64,000 nt of DNA, from NCBI RefSeq assembly GCF_004010195.1, contig NC_057754.1, positions 4,177,937 through 4,241,936 on the forward strand, in the 5' to 3' direction. The number at the start of each line of letters is the position of its first letter. The first letter of the stretch is position 1. The translations under genes and the position numbers were made by a program. A model generated the notes under the pieces. It was not told the origin of the DNA and did not search any database. It saw only the letters and a program-made list of their open reading frames with translations. Positions 1 through 64,000 of the stretch are shown here, in pieces. This DNA comes from Chiloscyllium plagiosum. Taxonomy: Eukaryota.

Positions 1-370
1 GACTCCCACAGCTACCTAGATTACACCTCCTCCCACCCTGCCTCCTGTAAAAACGCCATCCCATAATACCAATTCCTTCGCCTCCGTCGCATCTGCTCCC
101 AGGAGGACCAATTCCAATACTGAATAACCCAGTATTCTTCCCGACCTCTACATCCCCAATCCTTCTCCGGCCTATCACCCTTACCTTAACCTCCTTCCAC
201 CTATCGCATTCCCAACGCCCCTCCCCCAAGTCCCTCCTCCCTACCTTTTACCTTAGCCTGCTTGGCACACCCTCCTCATTCCTGAAGAAGGGCTTATGCC
301 CGAAACGTCGATACTCCTGCACCTTTGATGCTGCCTGACCTGCTGCGCTTTTCCAGCAACACATTTTTCA
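1..370 (+). mobile_element. Penelope-like element fragment (RT C-terminal piece plus 3' end with hammerhead motif)
   Basis: 1-110 reads DSHSYLDYTSSHPASCKNAIP*YQFLRLRRICSQED, a PLE RT thumb-like motif; the 3' end matches the copy at 4030-4183. Confidence 0.75.
278..313 (+). ncRNA. Minimal type-I hammerhead ribozyme motif (PLE-associated)
   Basis: CTGAAGA 282-288, stem II GGGC-ttat-GCCC, GAAA 302-305, palindromic ACGT, GTC triplet; stem I weak. Confidence 0.6.
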
Positions 371-4029: not shown

Positions 4030-4183
4030 TACAGGACAAAGTGAGGACTGCAGATGCTGGAGATCAGAGCTGAAAAATGTGTTGCTGGAAAAGCGCAGCA
4101 GGTCAGGCAGCATCCAAGGAGCAGGAGAATCGACGTTTCGGGCATAAGCCCTTCTTCAGGAATGAGGAGGGTGTGCCAAGCAG
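4030..4183 (-). mobile_element. Penelope-like element 3' end with hammerhead motif (4128-4163)
   Basis: Reverse complement nearly identical to 258-370: cattcCTGAAGAagggcttatgcccGAAAcGTCgatt. Confidence 0.75.
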
Positions 4184-4652: not shown

Positions 4653-4960
4653 GAGGGTTCCAAGGCAGAAGATGAGGCGCTCTTCCTCCAGGCGTCGTGT
4701 TGCCATGGTCTGGCGATGGAGGAGGCCAAGGACCTGCATGTCCTTGGCAGAGTGGGAGGGGGAGTTAAAGTGTTCAGCCATGGGATGGTTGGGTTGGTTG
4801 GTGCGGGTGTCCCAGAGGTGTTCTCTGAAACGTTCTGCAAGAGGAGGCCACATCGGGTGCAGCGGATGCAGTAAATGATATGTGTGGAGGTGTAGGTAAA
4901 TTTGTGACGGATATGGAAGGATCCCTTGGGGCCTTGGAGGGAAGTGAGGGGGGAGGATAC
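4653..4960 (-). mobile_element. Penelope-like GIY-YIG endonuclease fragment
   Basis: Reads LAERFREHLWDTRTNQPNHPMAEHFNSPSHSAKDMQVLGLLHRQTMATRRLEEERLIFCLGTL. Confidence 0.8.
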
Positions 4961-5119
4961 AGGACAGCTGAGTTTTCAGAACAACTGAAGGTTACAGATG
5001 GTAGGAGCTAGCCAGTCATGCCTAGGGGCAACCAAGGCAGAGGTGAAAGGTTGACAGCAGAATATAGATTGAGGAGGAGGCCACTGGCTACGTTCGGTGT
5101 TCCCCACTGGCAAAGTTCT

Positions 5120-52958: not shown

Positions 52959-53228
52959 CTGCGAGTGGACACAGGAAACTCCAGATGTTAAAAAAAACAC
53001 AATTAAATACACCGCTAACTGACCTATTTTGTAACAATTCTGAACTATCTTCCCCCTTTCCTTAGGAGTAACTGCTTCACAACTCCAGTTTCAGCCAATT
53101 GTCCTGCAAAATCGCCCCAAACTCAAATGGTTTTCCTGAGAGATGTTTACCCTAATCCCTCAAAAAATCCAGAGTCTTCTACCTGAAGCTATAATGCACT
53201 GCAAAATTTACTTAGCACGCTCATAGAT

Positions 53229-53321
53229 TCCTGATGAAGGGCTTTTGCCCGAAACATTGATTTTCCTGCTCTTCGGATGCTACATGACCTGCTGTGCTTT
53301 TCCAGCACCACTCTGATCTGT
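53229..53321 (+). mobile_element. 93-bp PLE 3'-end insertion starting at a CpG-decayed hammerhead motif, 10-bp TSD
   Basis: TSD gctcatagat at 53219-53228 and 53322-53331; CTGATGA-a-gggc-tttt-gccc-GAAA. Confidence 0.7.
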
Positions 53322-53477
53322 GCTCATAGATCTCCCTGTGTAAATAAATTCCCATTAGTCTTCAAAACTATCTATCTCAAACAGTTTTAAAAATACATCA
53401 CCATGGATACAAAAAATACTTACAAGTTAATCATTAAACCCCTTAAGGCACAGAGAAAACTCATATACCACTAGTTA

Positions 53478-56928: not shown

Positions 56929-57246
56929 CTGTGTGAGAGGGCAAAACATGAGAAATGAAAACTAAAAGAACTGCGGATGCTGTAAAGCAGAAACAAACAC
57001 AGAAATTGCTGGAAGAGCTCAGCAGGTCTGGCAGCATGTGTGAAGAGAAGTCAGGGTTAATGTTTCGGGTCCAGTGACCCTTCCGGTCAGCAGAGATAGA
57101 GAAGAAATTATTTATTCCCTGATTCTCTGTAGTGAAGGATACGAGGACAGGAAAGTATAAGCTTTTATTTGCAGAGATATAAATTACAAGCTTCTAGCTG
57201 TTTCTGGTTATAGAAGCAAAATTGAATCCCACAGTTAATGCTCACC

Positions 57247-57710
57247 ATAGAGTCATACAGCACGGAAACAGACCCTTCGGTCCAACTAGTCCATACCAAC
57301 CACGTTCCCAAACTAAAGTAGTCCCACTTGCTTGCATTTGGTCCATATCCCTCCAAACAAACAAGGAACGGGAACATAACAGCACAGAAACAGGCCCTTC
57401 GGCCCTCCAAGCCTGCACTGACACATTTTGCCCCTCCATACTAAAACTAAAACCGCTCCTATTCATGTACTCATCCAAATGTCTTTTAAACAGTGTAACT
57501 GTAGCTACAACCACCACTTCATGTGGAAGTTCATTCCACATGTGAACTCCTGTCCTTGTAAAAAAAAATTGCCCTTGTACCTTTTTTAAAATCTTTCTAC
57601 TCTCACCTTAGAAATATGCCCCCTACTTTTGAACTCCCCCACCCTAGGGAAAAGACCTTTGCTATCACCATATCCATACCCCTCATGATTTTATAAACTT
57701 CCATAAAAAG
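57247..57710 (-). mobile_element. CR1 3' fragments (nested)
   Basis: WNELPHEVVVVATVTLFKRHLDEYMN and CR1 tails. Confidence 0.75.
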
Positions 57711-58237
57711 GTGCTTACAATTAAATTGTGATGAGGATTGGGGGAGGCTAACACAGAGGAAATTAGAATAATTGAATTCCTACAATTCAATTATATAGGC
57801 CACTCAGCCCATTGGGTCAGCACCAACCCTCCCACCCAGACCCCTACCCTATCCTTGCAATGGATACCCATGGCTAACCCACCTAGCCTGCACATCCCAG
57901 GACAATTTAGCATAGCCAATTCACATAACCTGCACATCTTTGGACTGTGGGAGGAAACTAGAGCACTCAAAGGAAACCCACACAGACATGGGGAGAGCGT
58001 GCAAACCTCTACACAGACATCGCCCGAGGGTGAAATTGAACCCTGGTGCTGTGAGGCAGCAGTGCTAACAACTGAGCTACCGTACAGCCCAAAGTAAGCA
58101 CACAATTCATGTACAAATTAACAACCTAACTTGCCACACCTCTCCTCCTACACTCTGCCCATCCATTTAATTCTGTCTCGCAGCCAGTGTGCAATTCACC
58201 CAGAAATTAAACAAAAACTGAAGTGGAGGCAAGTTAC

Positions 58238-58360
58238 CTTCGCAGGAAGTCTGATGGTTAGACAGGCGATAGCCAGGGCGACAGCGACATTGGAAGGACC
58301 CCTCTGTGTTCAAGCAGCGGCCATTGGCGCAGAGCTGCCCATCACTGCACTCATTAATGT
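58238..58360 (-). CDS. LTBP3: LTBP3 exon (cbEGF), most 5' LTBP3 exon found in the window
   Basis: ttttag|..|GTAACT; DINECSDGQLCANGRCLNTEGSFQCRCRPGYRLSNHQTSCE. Confidence 0.94.
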
Positions 58361-59052
58361 CTAAAACAAGGTGAACAAAACAAATCAGGACTGGGATGGA
58401 GAATGAAAACAAAGTGGGAACAATGCTGGACACAGAGCGTGTCTGTTACTGGAAGGGAAAGGCCTCAGAGTGAAGCCAAATACTGAAGGGACCAAACACA
58501 GGCCCCACAGTGAGATGTTTGAGAGATTTACAGAATGGAAGACTGGTGGGGTACTGCAGAAATAATCCCTGGTGGACTCGACATGTTCATCTTCCATATT
58601 GCCCTTGACAATCTGATTTGTCCAGTCAAGGTGAAGATCAAAGCAACCCATGATAATTCTAGTGCCCTTTTAATACACCTCCATTATTCCACACTTACAC
58701 GTTGCGAGGAAACTCTTTGGCCTATAAGTGGCTACCAGCTGTGACTCATTTACTTTGCTCTTCCTTATTTGTAACCAAAGTATAAGACCATAAGATATAG
58801 GAGCAGATGTAGGTTAATCAGCCATCGAGTCTTCTCCATTTGATGAGATCATATGTGCTCTGTTAATCCTTAATTCTACTTTCTTGCCTTTTCCCCATCC
58901 TAATACTATCCCATTCCGTTCTAACTTCATGTCACAATCTCCTACACCCATGTCACTACTCACCGCTGTACCAATAGCATCCTTCATTAACTAAACCACC
59001 CTATCTCCTTTACCTTTTTGCCTGTTCCTCTAGTGCATCAAATATCCTTGAA

Positions 59053-59187
59053 CATATCCAAACATATAAATAGAAAGCAGGAATCAGCAGCAGTGCTTCA
59101 CCTGGAGGTCCACTGAAGATGTTACCTAGTAGGGTGACGAAACGTCTGGAAATGAACCTTCCAGCGCAGCAAGCAAACCTACATTTA
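59053..59187 (+). mobile_element. 135-bp PLE-derived insertion with 13-bp TSD
   Basis: TSD aaatatccttgaa at 59040-59052 and 59188-59200. Confidence 0.75.
59109..59150 (+). ncRNA. Minimal type-I hammerhead ribozyme motif (best-preserved copy)
   Basis: Stem I tcca/tgga, CTGAAGA 59113-59119, stem II gttacc/ggtgac, GAAA 59139-59142, palindromic ACGT, GTC cleavage triplet ending 59146. Confidence 0.75.
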
Positions 59188-59459
59188 AAATATCCTTGAA
59201 TATTGAGTTTCCCAGAATTGGTAACCCCTAAACCCCTGTAATAGCTACTATCAGGTATTATTAACTTATTTCTGTTTGTACTATCTATCTTGGAAGAAAT
59301 GTGCGTGCTTACAGACAAAAGAGCTTCAGCTTTGCATCTTTCTGTTTCTGCGTACTTTGGCTGTAATATCCGTTGCATTCCCCTGTGCTGTAACTAACTC
59401 CTTTTCCTGTCTAATTCTACGGGCTTGAGATCTAGTCACAACACAGTCAATAAATAATC

Positions 59460-60270
59460 CAAATGCTCTAGAATGTAACATCAGTTTCTTTTACCTCCAC
59501 TTATTTTTATGCCACCTACTGAGACTGAGTTTTGAACCAGCAAGACCAGTTCCACAAATAAACTCAATTCCTTTTATAAGGGTTTGTTTCACTGTTCCGG
59601 CTACAACCTCTCTAAAGAGTGTTTGCTGTGTCACTCTTTAGTCCAACTCTGCACAATAGGATTGATTTGTAATCTCCAAATATACCTCCAATTATTACAG
59701 TATATTCTCCTCCTGGAAGATAGAGAATTACCAGTCAGCATTCGTGACTAACCTGCTCCAGTGTTCCTCAATAACTTTATTGGTGTATTTCTCCAAACAC
59801 TTCTCCTCTTGAAATAAATTATTCTGAACCTCTAGCGATCTGACTCTAATGAACCGAGGAAGGATTTTCTTTACTGTCCTGAGAAATTTCTCCTTTTTCA
59901 GAAGATTATATGTTCTCTTTGTAAAACAACTGCAGTTTCAATACCCATTTCCTTTCCTCGTGTCCTCTTTTCTGAGGATTCCTTGAACTTTGTTGCAAAT
60001 GCAACTGTTGTCCCATTGAGCACCTAGCAATTGGCTTTGGTACGTCCGGTCTCATTGCAATGGAAACATTATATTTTTTTTGTTTCTAGCCTTTTTGCTT
60101 TATTGACTAAAGCCCATTTTTTATTGACTAAAACTAGCACCTGTTCCACCTCCAGGTTTTCTATTTGTTCAATCTCCTTGTGGACTCCCAAATGATTACC
60201 TCCCTGCCTGTTACTGTCTGGGTTGAATATCGAAGGTTTCTGCATCTTAGACACTTAATGCTCAACTAAA
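59460..60270 (-). mobile_element. Decayed Gypsy-type gag-protease relic
   Basis: Zn-knuckle-like CFHCNETGRTKANC (60068-60027) followed by protease-like PIKLLRNTGAG (59783-59751). Confidence 0.6.
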
Positions 60271-60399
60271 TAATGTTTAAGGTTTGCAGGAATGCTATTT
60301 CTGAATTATTCGATAATTATGATAAGTGCTTGCTTCGAGTGGAATGGGGATCAAGAGTTTAGCAAAACAGGCAGATGAGGAACGGGTGACAAATATTTT

Positions 60400-63300
60400 T
60401 TAAAAATAGTTAGCTATTCACAAGGATTCCAGGAAGGAGAGAAACCAAACCAAGGAAATTAAGGATGGTATCAGTTGAAAGGACAAAGATTAGGGGTAAT
60501 GCAGAGGATTGGGCAAGTTTCGAAACCAACAAAAGATGCTGATAAAAAAGACCTTTGAGGGCAAATGAAGAAGTAATGTCAATATGGACATCCAGACCTC
60601 CTTCATATATACACACAGGGAGAGAGAGGTTTCAGTGGGCAAAGGCCCTTTGGAGTATGAGGTGCAGTAAATAGCAATACAGAACCTGAAGATGGCAGAG
60701 GAGTTGAATAAACATTTTTCATCACAGTGGAAGACACTAATAACATTCCAAAAATACTAAATAATCAAGAGGCAAAAGTGGGACAGGAAATAAATGCAAT
60801 TTATTTGATTTGCATTGATCCTGCTAAGCTATATGGCTGTGCAACCATTCAGAGATCCTGTGCATGTCAAGACATTAGCACCCAGTTGCGGAAGTCATTG
60901 CTACACATCGATGTCCACACAGTGGGAACAGAGATTACAGTGAGCATAGATGAATATCACGAGAGAAAACATATTATGGAAACTAAAAGGGCTAGAGGCT
61001 GATAAGCCCTCGTTGGGTTGCATCCTAGGATATTAATGGAAATACCCACCAAAATAGTGAAGCTGCTGGTAGTAATGCCCCCATTCAATTCTGGGAAAAT
61101 CCCTTAGGATTTGAAAATGCTAATGTAATGCATCTATTGAAAAATGGAGCAAGACAGAAAACACAGATAATTATAGGCCAGTTTGATTCACACCTTTCCT
61201 GGGAAATGTTAGTATATATTATAAAAGATCCAAGAGCATTTATAAATACATAAAATAATCAAGCAGGATTAGCACAGCTTCATGAAGGGGGAATCATGCC
61301 TGACAAATTCATTAGAATTTTTTGAGGAGGCAACAAATAGGATAGATAAAGGAGAACCAATGGATGCAATATATTTGGATTTCCAAAAGGTGCTTGATAA
61401 GGTATTGTATTTTAAACTCAGAGCTTATGGTGTTGGGGCTATTATATAAGCATGGAAGGATCAGCTAACAAATAGAAGACAAGATTTGGGATAAGTGGGA
61501 GCATTGTCAGGACGGCAATCTGTAATTAGTATGGTGCCACATGGCTACATTTATTTGCTTTCTATTTACATTTGTGACTTGGATAAGGAAAATTAATGGA
61601 GCAAGTTTGCAGATGATACAAAAATAGGTGAGAAGACAGTTGATGAGGCTAACACAGAGTCAATGGAAGGATGTAGATGGGTTAAGGGAGTGGGCAAGAT
61701 CTTGGAAGATGCAGATAATATGGGAAAATGTGAGGTTAAGCAGTCTGGCAGCAAGGATAGTGGAGTGAAGTTTTATTTAAATGGAGCAAGACTGCAGAAA
61801 GCTATAGCACATAAGGATATGGAAGTCCATGTGAGCCAGTCAGAAAAAAACTAGCATCCAAGTTCAGCAGGTAATAGGACAGACAAATGATTATTGGGCT
61901 TTATTTTAAAGAAAAAAAGCATATAAATAGGGAAGTTATATAGAAGGCGCTATTTAGACAGATCTAAAATACCATGAACAGTTTTGGTCCTATTAGCTAA
62001 GGTGGTAGTAGATGGAAAATATTCAACCTGGAGCTCAGTGACCAATGGTGTTCTGCAGTGATCTGTTCTGGGACCTCTGCTCTTTATGATTTTTATAAAT
62101 GACTTGGATGAGGAAGTGGAAGGGTGGGTTAGTAAGTTTGCCAATAACACAAAGGTTGGTGGAGTGGTAGATAGTGTGGAGGGCTGTTGTAGTCGCAACA
62201 GGACATTGACAGGACCCAGAGCTGGGCTGAGAAGTGGTAGATGGAGTTCAACTTGGAAAAGTGTGAAGTGATTCATTTTTAAAGGTCAAATTTGAATACA
62301 GATTACAGGGTTAAAGGCAGTGTGGAGGAACAGAAGGATCTTGGGGTCCACGTGCATAGATCCCTCAAAGTGTCAAGTTGATAGGGTTGTTAAGAAGGAG
62401 TATGGTATGTTGGCTTTCATTAGCAGGGGGATTGAGTTTAAGAGCCTTGAGGTTATACTGCAGCTCTATAAAGCCCTGGTTAGACCACACTTGGAATATT
62501 GTGTTCAGTTCTGGTCGTCTCATGATATGGAGGATGTGTAAGTATTAGAGAGGGTGCAGAGGAGATTTACCAGGATGCTGTCTGGACTGGAGGGGCATCT
62601 CTTATGAAGAAAAGTTGAGCGAGTTAGGGCTTTTCTCACTGGAGCAAAGAAAGATGAGAGGTGACTTGTTAGAGGTGTACAAGATGATGAGAGACTTAGA
62701 TAAAGTGGATAGCCAGAGACTCTTTCCCAGGGTGGTAATGGTTATCATGAGGGGGCATAATTTTAAGATGATTGGTGGAAGGTTTGAGGAGATGGAGAGG
62801 TAGGTTCTTTACACTGAGAGTGGTGGGTACATAGTATGCACTGCCAGCAGTGGTAGTACAGTCAGATAAATTCAGGACATTTAAGCCAATCTTGGATAGG
62901 CACATGGATGATAGTAAAATGAAGGATATGTAGGTTAGTTTGATCATAGTGTAGGATAAAAGGTTGGCACAACATTGAGGGCCGAAGGGCCTGTACTGTG
63001 CTGTACTGTTCTATCATCAGTGCTTGGGTCCCAGCTATTCACAATATACATTAACACACTAAACGAGGGATGCAAAACTTTGTCCTGAATTTTGCTGGTG
63101 CAGTAACTATAACAAGGTCAGCCAGGTGGACCTCACAGAATAGGAGTTCCCTGACTGGGGTCGTTAACCTGGTCCAATCAGGGAGCCATGGCTGACAAAG
63201 ATCAACAGGAGCGTTAGGGGGTAAACAAAACCAGATGTTGCTGGAAAAGCTCAGCCACGTCTGGCAGCATTTGTGAAAAGAAATCAGCATTTACATTTCG

Positions 63301-63900
63301 GGTCTGGTGACCCTCCCTCAGAACAGCGTCAGGGGTTCTGTGCACTCTGTGAGCTGGTTCTTAGGAAGCCAGATCTGCATCAATGACAATGCACTTGAGG
63401 GTGACAGGATACTAGTTTCTGTGGAGTTATTTCAGCTGACAACACCAAACCCCAGGAGACTGAGAGTAGTTAGTTTGCGTGTAAAGAGTATTCAAGGCAA
63501 TTTAGACAGTATGAAGTTAGTGGGCAAATGCAGTATTACATGGATAAGGGTGAAGTTATCCAATTTTGTGGGAAAAGCACACTGGCTGAGGATTACTTTA
63601 ATGGTGATAGATTGAGAAACGTCGACGTACACAAGAATCTGTGTGTCCTTGCACGTCAGTCACTGAAAGCAAACACATCAGTGCAACAAGCTGTTAGGAA
63701 GGTACATGGCATGTTAATCTTAATTACAAGAAAATCTGGATACAGAAGCAAGGAACTCTTACCACAGGGCTTTGGTGAGGGCATACCTGGAGTATTATAT
63801 GCAGTTTTGGTCTCCTTAGCTAAGAAAAGGTAAACTTGCATCGAGGGAATGCAAGTTCATTGAACTGAATCCTGAGATGGTAGGTTTGCAATACTGAGAG
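60400..63900 (+). mobile_element. Stacked CR1 LINE fragments with a nested solo LTR (about 63099-63433) and a PLE insert (63221-63324)
   Basis: RT motifs (IYLDFQK, IFINDLDEEVEGWVSKFA, LEYCVQFWS); PLE insert TSD agcgt(t/c)agggg. Confidence 0.7.
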
Positions 63901-64000
63901 AGATTGACCCCAACATTGGACAGTAAAAACGTCTTGGCCGAAAACAACAAATGCTGGAGATCACAGCGGGTCAGACAACCACACTCTCCATGGACAGACA

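Follow-up and report, generated by a model that had tools for sequence, protein, structure and literature searches.

Introduction

Penelope-like elements (PLEs) generally show strong 5' truncation, partial tandem arrangements, inverted copies and tails (Craig et al. 2021, PMC8557442), and in the rotifer A. vaga their insertions are flanked by duplications of 8-10 bp and carry a pseudo-LTR (pLTR) and a tail spanning 22 codons (Arkhipova et al. 2013, PMC3846280). The closest described system is PAc, a Poseidon PLE of Anolis carolinensis, in which the open reading frame (ORF) starts at stem II of a hammerhead motif, with C3 and G8 preceding the ATG, and the cut site falls 26 bp past the start codon (Frangieh et al. 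2024, PMC11167929). Reverse transcription of PAc starts internally at two nearby sites within the first ~120 nt of the ORF, which accounts for the optional tail, and its endonuclease favours AT-rich DNA with ATT. The PAc hammerhead cleaves only in the presence of protein, and is dispensable for insertion in vitro (PMC11167929). Minimal hammerheads of this kind are mostly single motifs tied to truncated PLEs, number thousands per genome, and are inactive as monomers and weak as dimers (Cervera and De la Pena 2014, PMC4209133). A related class, the animal non-LTR retrozymes, consists of tandem repeats with one hammerhead per unit (Cervera and De la Pena 2020, PMC7229834); they originate from the pLTRs of PLEs, give rise to dispersed monomers, and are known from a single chondrichthyan genome (Li et al. 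2026, bioRxiv 10.64898/2026.07.22.740005). Sharks are not named among the hosts of minimal hammerheads in the excerpts of PMC4209133, and our literature search, which covered subscription papers and Repbase thinly, found no publication on shark PLE hammerheads.

Here, we describe a short, hammerhead-bearing insertion within a 64,000-nucleotide stretch of Chiloscyllium plagiosum DNA (the window). We present evidence that it is a dead-on-arrival, strongly 5'-truncated insertion of an autonomous PLE, most likely of the Poseidon type, a reading to which we assign a probability of roughly 0.85. Taken as one locus, this textbook-like PLE stump matters little; its value is that of a clean example, in a shark-type genome, of the internal-priming geometry demonstrated in vitro for PAc, strengthened by paralogous empty sites and by an orthologue in a second species.

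Results and Discussion

A 135-bp insertion bounded by a target-site duplication

The insertion and its host comprise the following features.

59040..59052, + strand: left copy of the target-site duplication (TSD), exact over 13 bp, or 16 bp allowing one mismatch
59053..59057, + strand: 5' junction filler; family alignments begin at 59058
59058..59184, + strand: 127-bp piece of an abundant repeat family, 5'-shortened, defined by alignments of sequencing contigs
59185..59187, + strand: 3' junction filler TTA; most of the family alignments listed end at 59183-59185
59188..59200, + strand: right TSD copy, an exact repeat of the left copy
58900..59260 (approximate), - strand: host, an older low-copy repeat split by the insertion, defined by paralogous contigs on both flanks and by translation

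The motif AAATATCCTTGAA is present exactly at both TSD positions with a start-to-start spacing of 148, leaving 135 bp between the copies, just as the initial annotation had described. When 30-mer pairs 157 bp apart were drawn at random from the same, repeat-rich window (20,000 draws, with N-containing pairs dropped), 16 of 19,383 shared an exact word of at least 13. Eight of the 135 bp are junction filler (five left, three right) and not family sequence. The five bases of the 5' filler echo a motif located 10 bp deeper in the element; alternatively, three of them are part of the 16-bp duplication with one change. The target site, at which the TSD is present, is AT-rich.

Public sequencing data from 4 of 24 listed runs (three DNA, one RNA) were aligned to 58900-59350. 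Diverged paralogues of the flanking host repeat join 59023 to 59190 in every one of the three DNA runs and, in two of these, 59031 to 59189, with 18 and 10 substitute letters at the joints, approximately the length of the host stretch replaced. Because the matching arms of the joints are short (21 letters in those for which a length is given) and matches were accepted from a likeness of 82, we take them as support and not as proof. Since the duplicated motif is single in these empty-site-like paralogues, we regard the duplication as a true insertion scar. The translation of the flanks also keeps a single reading frame through the site when either repeat copy is disregarded. Contigs of a second species (organism B) cross both junctions, with 4 and 12 differing letters, and the insertion therefore predates the split of organisms A and B. 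In run X8 of organism A the right junction is present and the left junction is absent among the matches listed.

An intact minimal type I hammerhead motif

The insert carries a hammerhead motif with the following parts, assigned by motif analysis, and an ORF start, assigned by translation.

59109..59150, + strand: minimal type I hammerhead motif (stems I and II, core and palindrome), with the architecture described in PMC4209133
59109-59112/59147-59150, + strand: stem I, 4 bp
59113-59119, + strand: hammerhead C3-A9, core CUGAAGA
59120, + strand: extra unpaired U between positions 9 and 10.1
59121-59127/59132-59138, + strand: stem II, 6-7 bp (7 bp including the closing U-G)
59139-59142, + strand: G12-A15.1, GAAA
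59142-59145, + strand: palindrome ACGU, no stem III
59146, + strand: C17, after which the cut is predicted
59119..59184, + strand: ATG at hammerhead A9, followed by 22 codons open to the family end

The core positions and stems of the minimal type I form are present, namely C3-A9, G12-A14, A15.1, U16.1, H17 and stems I and II. The G10.1-C11.1 pair, the extra base between 9 and 10.1, the palindromic 15.2-16.2 and the absence of stem III are as in the minimal forms of PMC4209133, and the long stem II, short stem I and single dispersed occurrence resemble those of metazoan PLE hammerheads (PMC4209133). The core, the 4-bp stem I and the ACGU palindrome thus stand as initially annotated; stem II, given there as 6 bp, becomes 7 bp on counting the closing U-G, and contains two G-U pairs.

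A minimal-hammerhead descriptor, composed after the motif had been seen, matched once in the real window and a single time across 200 simulated windows with matching dinucleotide composition. The Rfam models, proposed at the outset as a check on the motif, gave no hammerhead match in the whole window at the gathering score or in 58900-59350 at E<=10; the scans returned only three chance matches (E 0.7-1.4). Rfam hammerhead models probably require a stem III and would miss minimal forms. Folding of the 46-nt motif recovers stems I and II, but 13 of 200 shuffled sequences fold equally well. Within its 135-nt context, stem I is missing from the structure of lowest energy and the centroid retains stem II only (z = -0.29). 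A forced double-hammerhead dimer has an energy of -23.5 kcal/mol, two monomers sum to -24.4 (2 x -12.2) and the most stable co-fold reaches -26.8; energy alone therefore gives the dimer no preference. A blastn search of the window found no further copy of the insert (best E 0.15), with one 20-mer near-match at 61.57 kb.

An abundant repeat family that runs past both ends of the insert

The number of contigs aligned to 59058-59184 was 9,581, 6,200 and 9,875 in the three DNA runs, most of them below 95% identity. Summed depth over this interval was ~1e5-1.5e6, versus 10-107 on the flanks (run X1); summed depth is no copy number, and we therefore state the family size only as thousands or more. 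The counts of loose ends, variants and contig pieces given here are among those listed. Family sequence extends before 59058 in 62, 58 and 61 contigs of the three DNA runs and in 14+20 RNA reads (local depth ~53). It extends behind 59184 in 402, 225 and 453 contigs, and behind 59181-59185 in 54+17+11 RNA reads (local depth ~88-116). Family members thus commonly run past both ends in all four runs, and the length of this copy is no family unit. Copies sharing both ends, the expectation for a non-autonomous 135-bp unit with fixed ends as initially proposed, are at odds with these continuations.

Among the ends listed, the family shows variable 5' truncation: it continues upstream of 59058, and depth rises toward the 3' end, climbing 2.5-fold in reads to 4-fold in contigs from 59060-59075 to 59140-59155. 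Instead of truncation, this depth step may reflect subfamilies with other upstream sequence, or the private changes of the copy at 59084-59104. Downstream, contigs continue uniformly for ~9 nt and then become mixed and AT-rich, and reads continue for at least 30 nt; the two patterns might correspond to short and long 3' ends, as a PLE tail predicts. Many family contigs also break just 5' of the hammerhead (59105-59111), with 92, 66 and 125 contigs at 59111 and a mixed consensus, marking either a favoured 5' start point or a second subfamily whose upstream region differs.

At a likeness threshold of 82, three opposite-strand joints (one contig each) and two go-back, head-to-tail joints (single contigs) were detected among family members. 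Such inverted and tandem arrangements, each on single contigs here, would be as in EN+ PLEs (PMC8557442). The head-to-tail joints of run X9, 59183>59110 and 59163>59115, would make 74- and 49-nt hammerhead dimers, retrozyme-like if real. At the insert itself there is no inverted partner, and the surrounding 57000-64000 contains no tandem repeat and a single hammerhead motif.

The copy is moderately diverged, the family majority differing from it at 59087, 59109, 59166 and 59171 (73-99% of depth in run X1, among the variants listed). Position 59109 is C in ~87% of family depth, where the copy has a U-A pair; the fourth stem I pair is therefore private to the copy, and stem I has 3 bp in the family majority, compared with 4-5 bp in the minimal hammerheads of Schistosoma (PMC4209133). 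CpG-type changes at 59138, 59143 and 59144 each occupy 23-30% of family depth, as expected for unselected genomic copies; all three positions are intact in the copy. Position 59110 shows C>T in 24% of family depth and position 59149 shows G>A in 39%; together these two variants would turn a C-G pair of stem I into U-A, and they are a possible, unphased compensatory pair between subfamilies.

The insertion lies antisense within a probable LTBP-family intron

The neighbouring gene was traced by motif scan.

58281..58361, - strand: closest exon-like EGF-calcium motif, assigned to an LTBP-family gene
35924-58361 (35.9-58.4 kb), - strand: LTBP-family exons, with TB and calcium-EGF motifs
58281, 56846, 54692, 44151 and 35924, - strand: calcium-EGF motifs
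52822 and 41997, - strand: TB motifs

The TB domain encoded at 52.8 kb has a match in LTBP1 (E 1.6e-22), and Pfam TB and EGF_CA were found on the exons at 52.8 and 56.9 kb; the TB domain presumably also resembles that of LTBP3. No upstream LTBP-family exon was found in 59.2-64 kb. The insert probably lies in an intron of this gene, in antisense orientation; the intronic placement follows from the mid-protein position of the TB and EGF domains. Owing to the antisense orientation, host transcripts would lack the ribozyme strand. The peptide encoded by the split host repeat presumably resembles a CR1-type LINE endonuclease; Pfam returned no family on the host-repeat translations.

The RNA data consist of 178 aligned reads, representing 2% of one polyA single-cell short-read run (X21). 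None of the 178 is 99% alike to the copy and none lies on the unique flank, and they show no pile-up of RNA starts or ends, which in polyA single-cell reads is a weak test of cleavage. Reads on 59060-59187 are skewed ~3:1 toward the hammerhead-sense strand; this could be real transcription of the element or oligo-dT priming on AT-rich 3' flanks.

A probable Penelope-like origin with a geometry like that of PAc

The interval 59058-59184 would comprise a PLE pLTR and the first codons of an ORF, with the ATG at 59119 as the probable start of the parent ORF by analogy with PAc. The predicted cut falls after the 28th base counted from the ATG, and the family 3' end lies ~66 nt into the frame. As in PAc, the hammerhead spans the boundary between pLTR and ORF, C3 and G8 preceding the ATG (cut at 28 nt here versus 26 in PAc), the 3' end lies in the first ORF codons, possibly in both short and long forms, and the target is AT-rich (PMC11167929). 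The 3' ends differ in position, ~66 nt into the frame here (~75 in many members, at least 96 in others) versus 111-118 nt in PAc (PMC11167929). This likeness is one of geometry, and it is on that geometry that the family is assigned to a most likely Poseidon-type clade.

The insertion also resembles those of EN+ PLEs, which have duplications of ~10 bp and an optional 30-40-bp tail, in its strong 5' truncation, its duplication and its microhomology-type 5' junction, and the family may share the optional tail; the insertion differs in having neither an inverted partner nor a long tail (PMC3846280, PMC8557442). Its 13-16-bp duplication slightly exceeds the 8-10 bp of A. vaga (PMC3846280). In the data examined, no RT or GIY-YIG sequence of the insert's family was seen, and none of 7 longer candidate proteins proved related to the 22-codon peptide. 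The sole phmmer match in a search of 1.84 billion proteins, P0001, was rejected as a tandem-repeat protein whose score was summed over six stretches at 35% identity. Pattern scans of two metagenome collections, one genome collection and one viral collection, in which shark DNA is not expected, gave no matches. The hammerhead of the insert is the ordinary one of such elements.

The duplication, the motif, the family membership, the truncation relative to the family and the presence in a second species were each observed, and the link to PLEs is supported, as is the fallback of the initial annotation, an extreme 5'-truncated PLE copy. For the enzyme and the priming steps, we infer the following route. 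A PLE RT/GIY-YIG protein would nick AT-rich DNA within the older repeat, and reverse transcription would begin internally on the PLE's own RNA, ~66 nt past the ORF start. About 127 nt would be copied through the hammerhead before copying halted 55 nt upstream of the core; the cDNA would then be attached by way of a few filler bases, and filling of a break staggered by 13-16 nt would yield the duplication. The hammerhead would be a passenger on this route; because copying would start just downstream of it, almost every PLE stump would contain one. The 3' position, the AT-rich target and the length of the insert fit an aborted copy made by such a PAc-like route.

Alternative origins

A variant of this route, which we hold to be unlikely, is compatible with the depth step at 59091-59124, the mixed consensus where family contigs break at 59110-59111 and the 3:1 excess of hammerhead-sense RNA reads. 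It supposes a dedicated short RNA that begins a little 5' of the hammerhead and has its 3' end in the tail, and a PLE protein that takes this RNA as template much more frequently than the complete element, so that a SINE-like, hammerhead-headed PLE satellite would make up most copies. Even so, the insert copy, which starts 55 nt further upstream, would derive from a longer RNA. A more distant proposal, which we find quite improbable, is that the insert stems from a non-autonomous, PLE-derived short element, either a solo retrozyme monomer or a SINE-like RNA, with a longer master mobilised in trans. The great abundance of a family linked to no ORF, the two head-to-tail joints around the hammerhead and the strand skew of the RNA reads would suit such an element, as would the dispersed monomers left by PLE-pLTR-derived retrozymes, known from one chondrichthyan genome; the insert shares with non-LTR retrozymes its shortness, its non-coding nature, a type I hammerhead and a PLE pLTR origin (bioRxiv 10.64898/2026.07.22.740005, PMC7229834). 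However, the insert has no tandem context, neither of its ends lies at the predicted cut at 59146, and the ends are not adjacent in a circular permutation. It is a single truncated piece, and membership among the non-LTR retrozymes fails because there is no tandem array and the ends ignore the cut site. Its motif is of the minimal PLE type and not the canonical retrozyme type, the ATG at A9 suits an ORF-bearing parent, and the missing pile-up of RNA starts and ends, a weak test, points the same way. The chondrichthyan retrozyme families of bioRxiv 10.64898/2026.07.22.740005 may nevertheless include the family of the insert.

The clean duplication and intact motif would also suit a separate family of 135-bp ribozyme retroposons whose copies have both ends in common, and several of the contig pieces listed do align over 59058-59184; these pieces begin and stop there because the reference sequence does. 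With family sequence past both ends in the same runs and 8 of 135 bp outside the family, a discrete unit is very hard to sustain. Retention of the copy by selection, as a functional ribozyme at the host locus, could explain why the core bases and the CpG-prone positions 59138, 59143 and 59144 are intact here while each of the three is lost in a sizeable fraction of family depth, and why the insertion is common to organism B. Yet the ribozyme is antisense to the probable host pre-mRNA, none of the 178 RNA reads matches the copy at 99%, and the unique flanks lack RNA depth in the 2% of the one run aligned. An intact core is moreover expected by chance in many copies at such divergence, and the motif was chosen for its intactness, so we consider selection extremely doubtful. 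We therefore favour the truncated insertion of an autonomous PLE. The family is large enough that a tally of its ends could show where PLE templates begin and whether cleavage by the hammerhead contributes to integration at all.

Other Penelope-like sequences in the window

Fragments of a second PLE family lie at 1-141 (+ strand) and 4653-4969 (- strand) and include RT-side and GIY-YIG pieces with a CxxC linker. They match P0002 and P0003, proteins labelled Chiloscyllium punctatum, at 63-90% identity, and we take the family to be Neptune-like. Three mutually similar hammerhead-type ends with a short stem II, at 282 (+), 4159 (-) and 53231 (+), are unlike the insert in sequence. The second family is not the parent of the insert; it does support a shark setting and active PLEs in this lineage. 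Two of its ends, 258-370 and 4071-4183, share 97% identity over 113 bp and lie 3.7 kb from each other in opposite orientation, and this family is younger than that of the insert. The hammerhead-type end at 53231 is framed by a 10-bp direct repeat (53219 and 53322), and 53219-53331 is probably another short PLE insertion, of ~93 bp.
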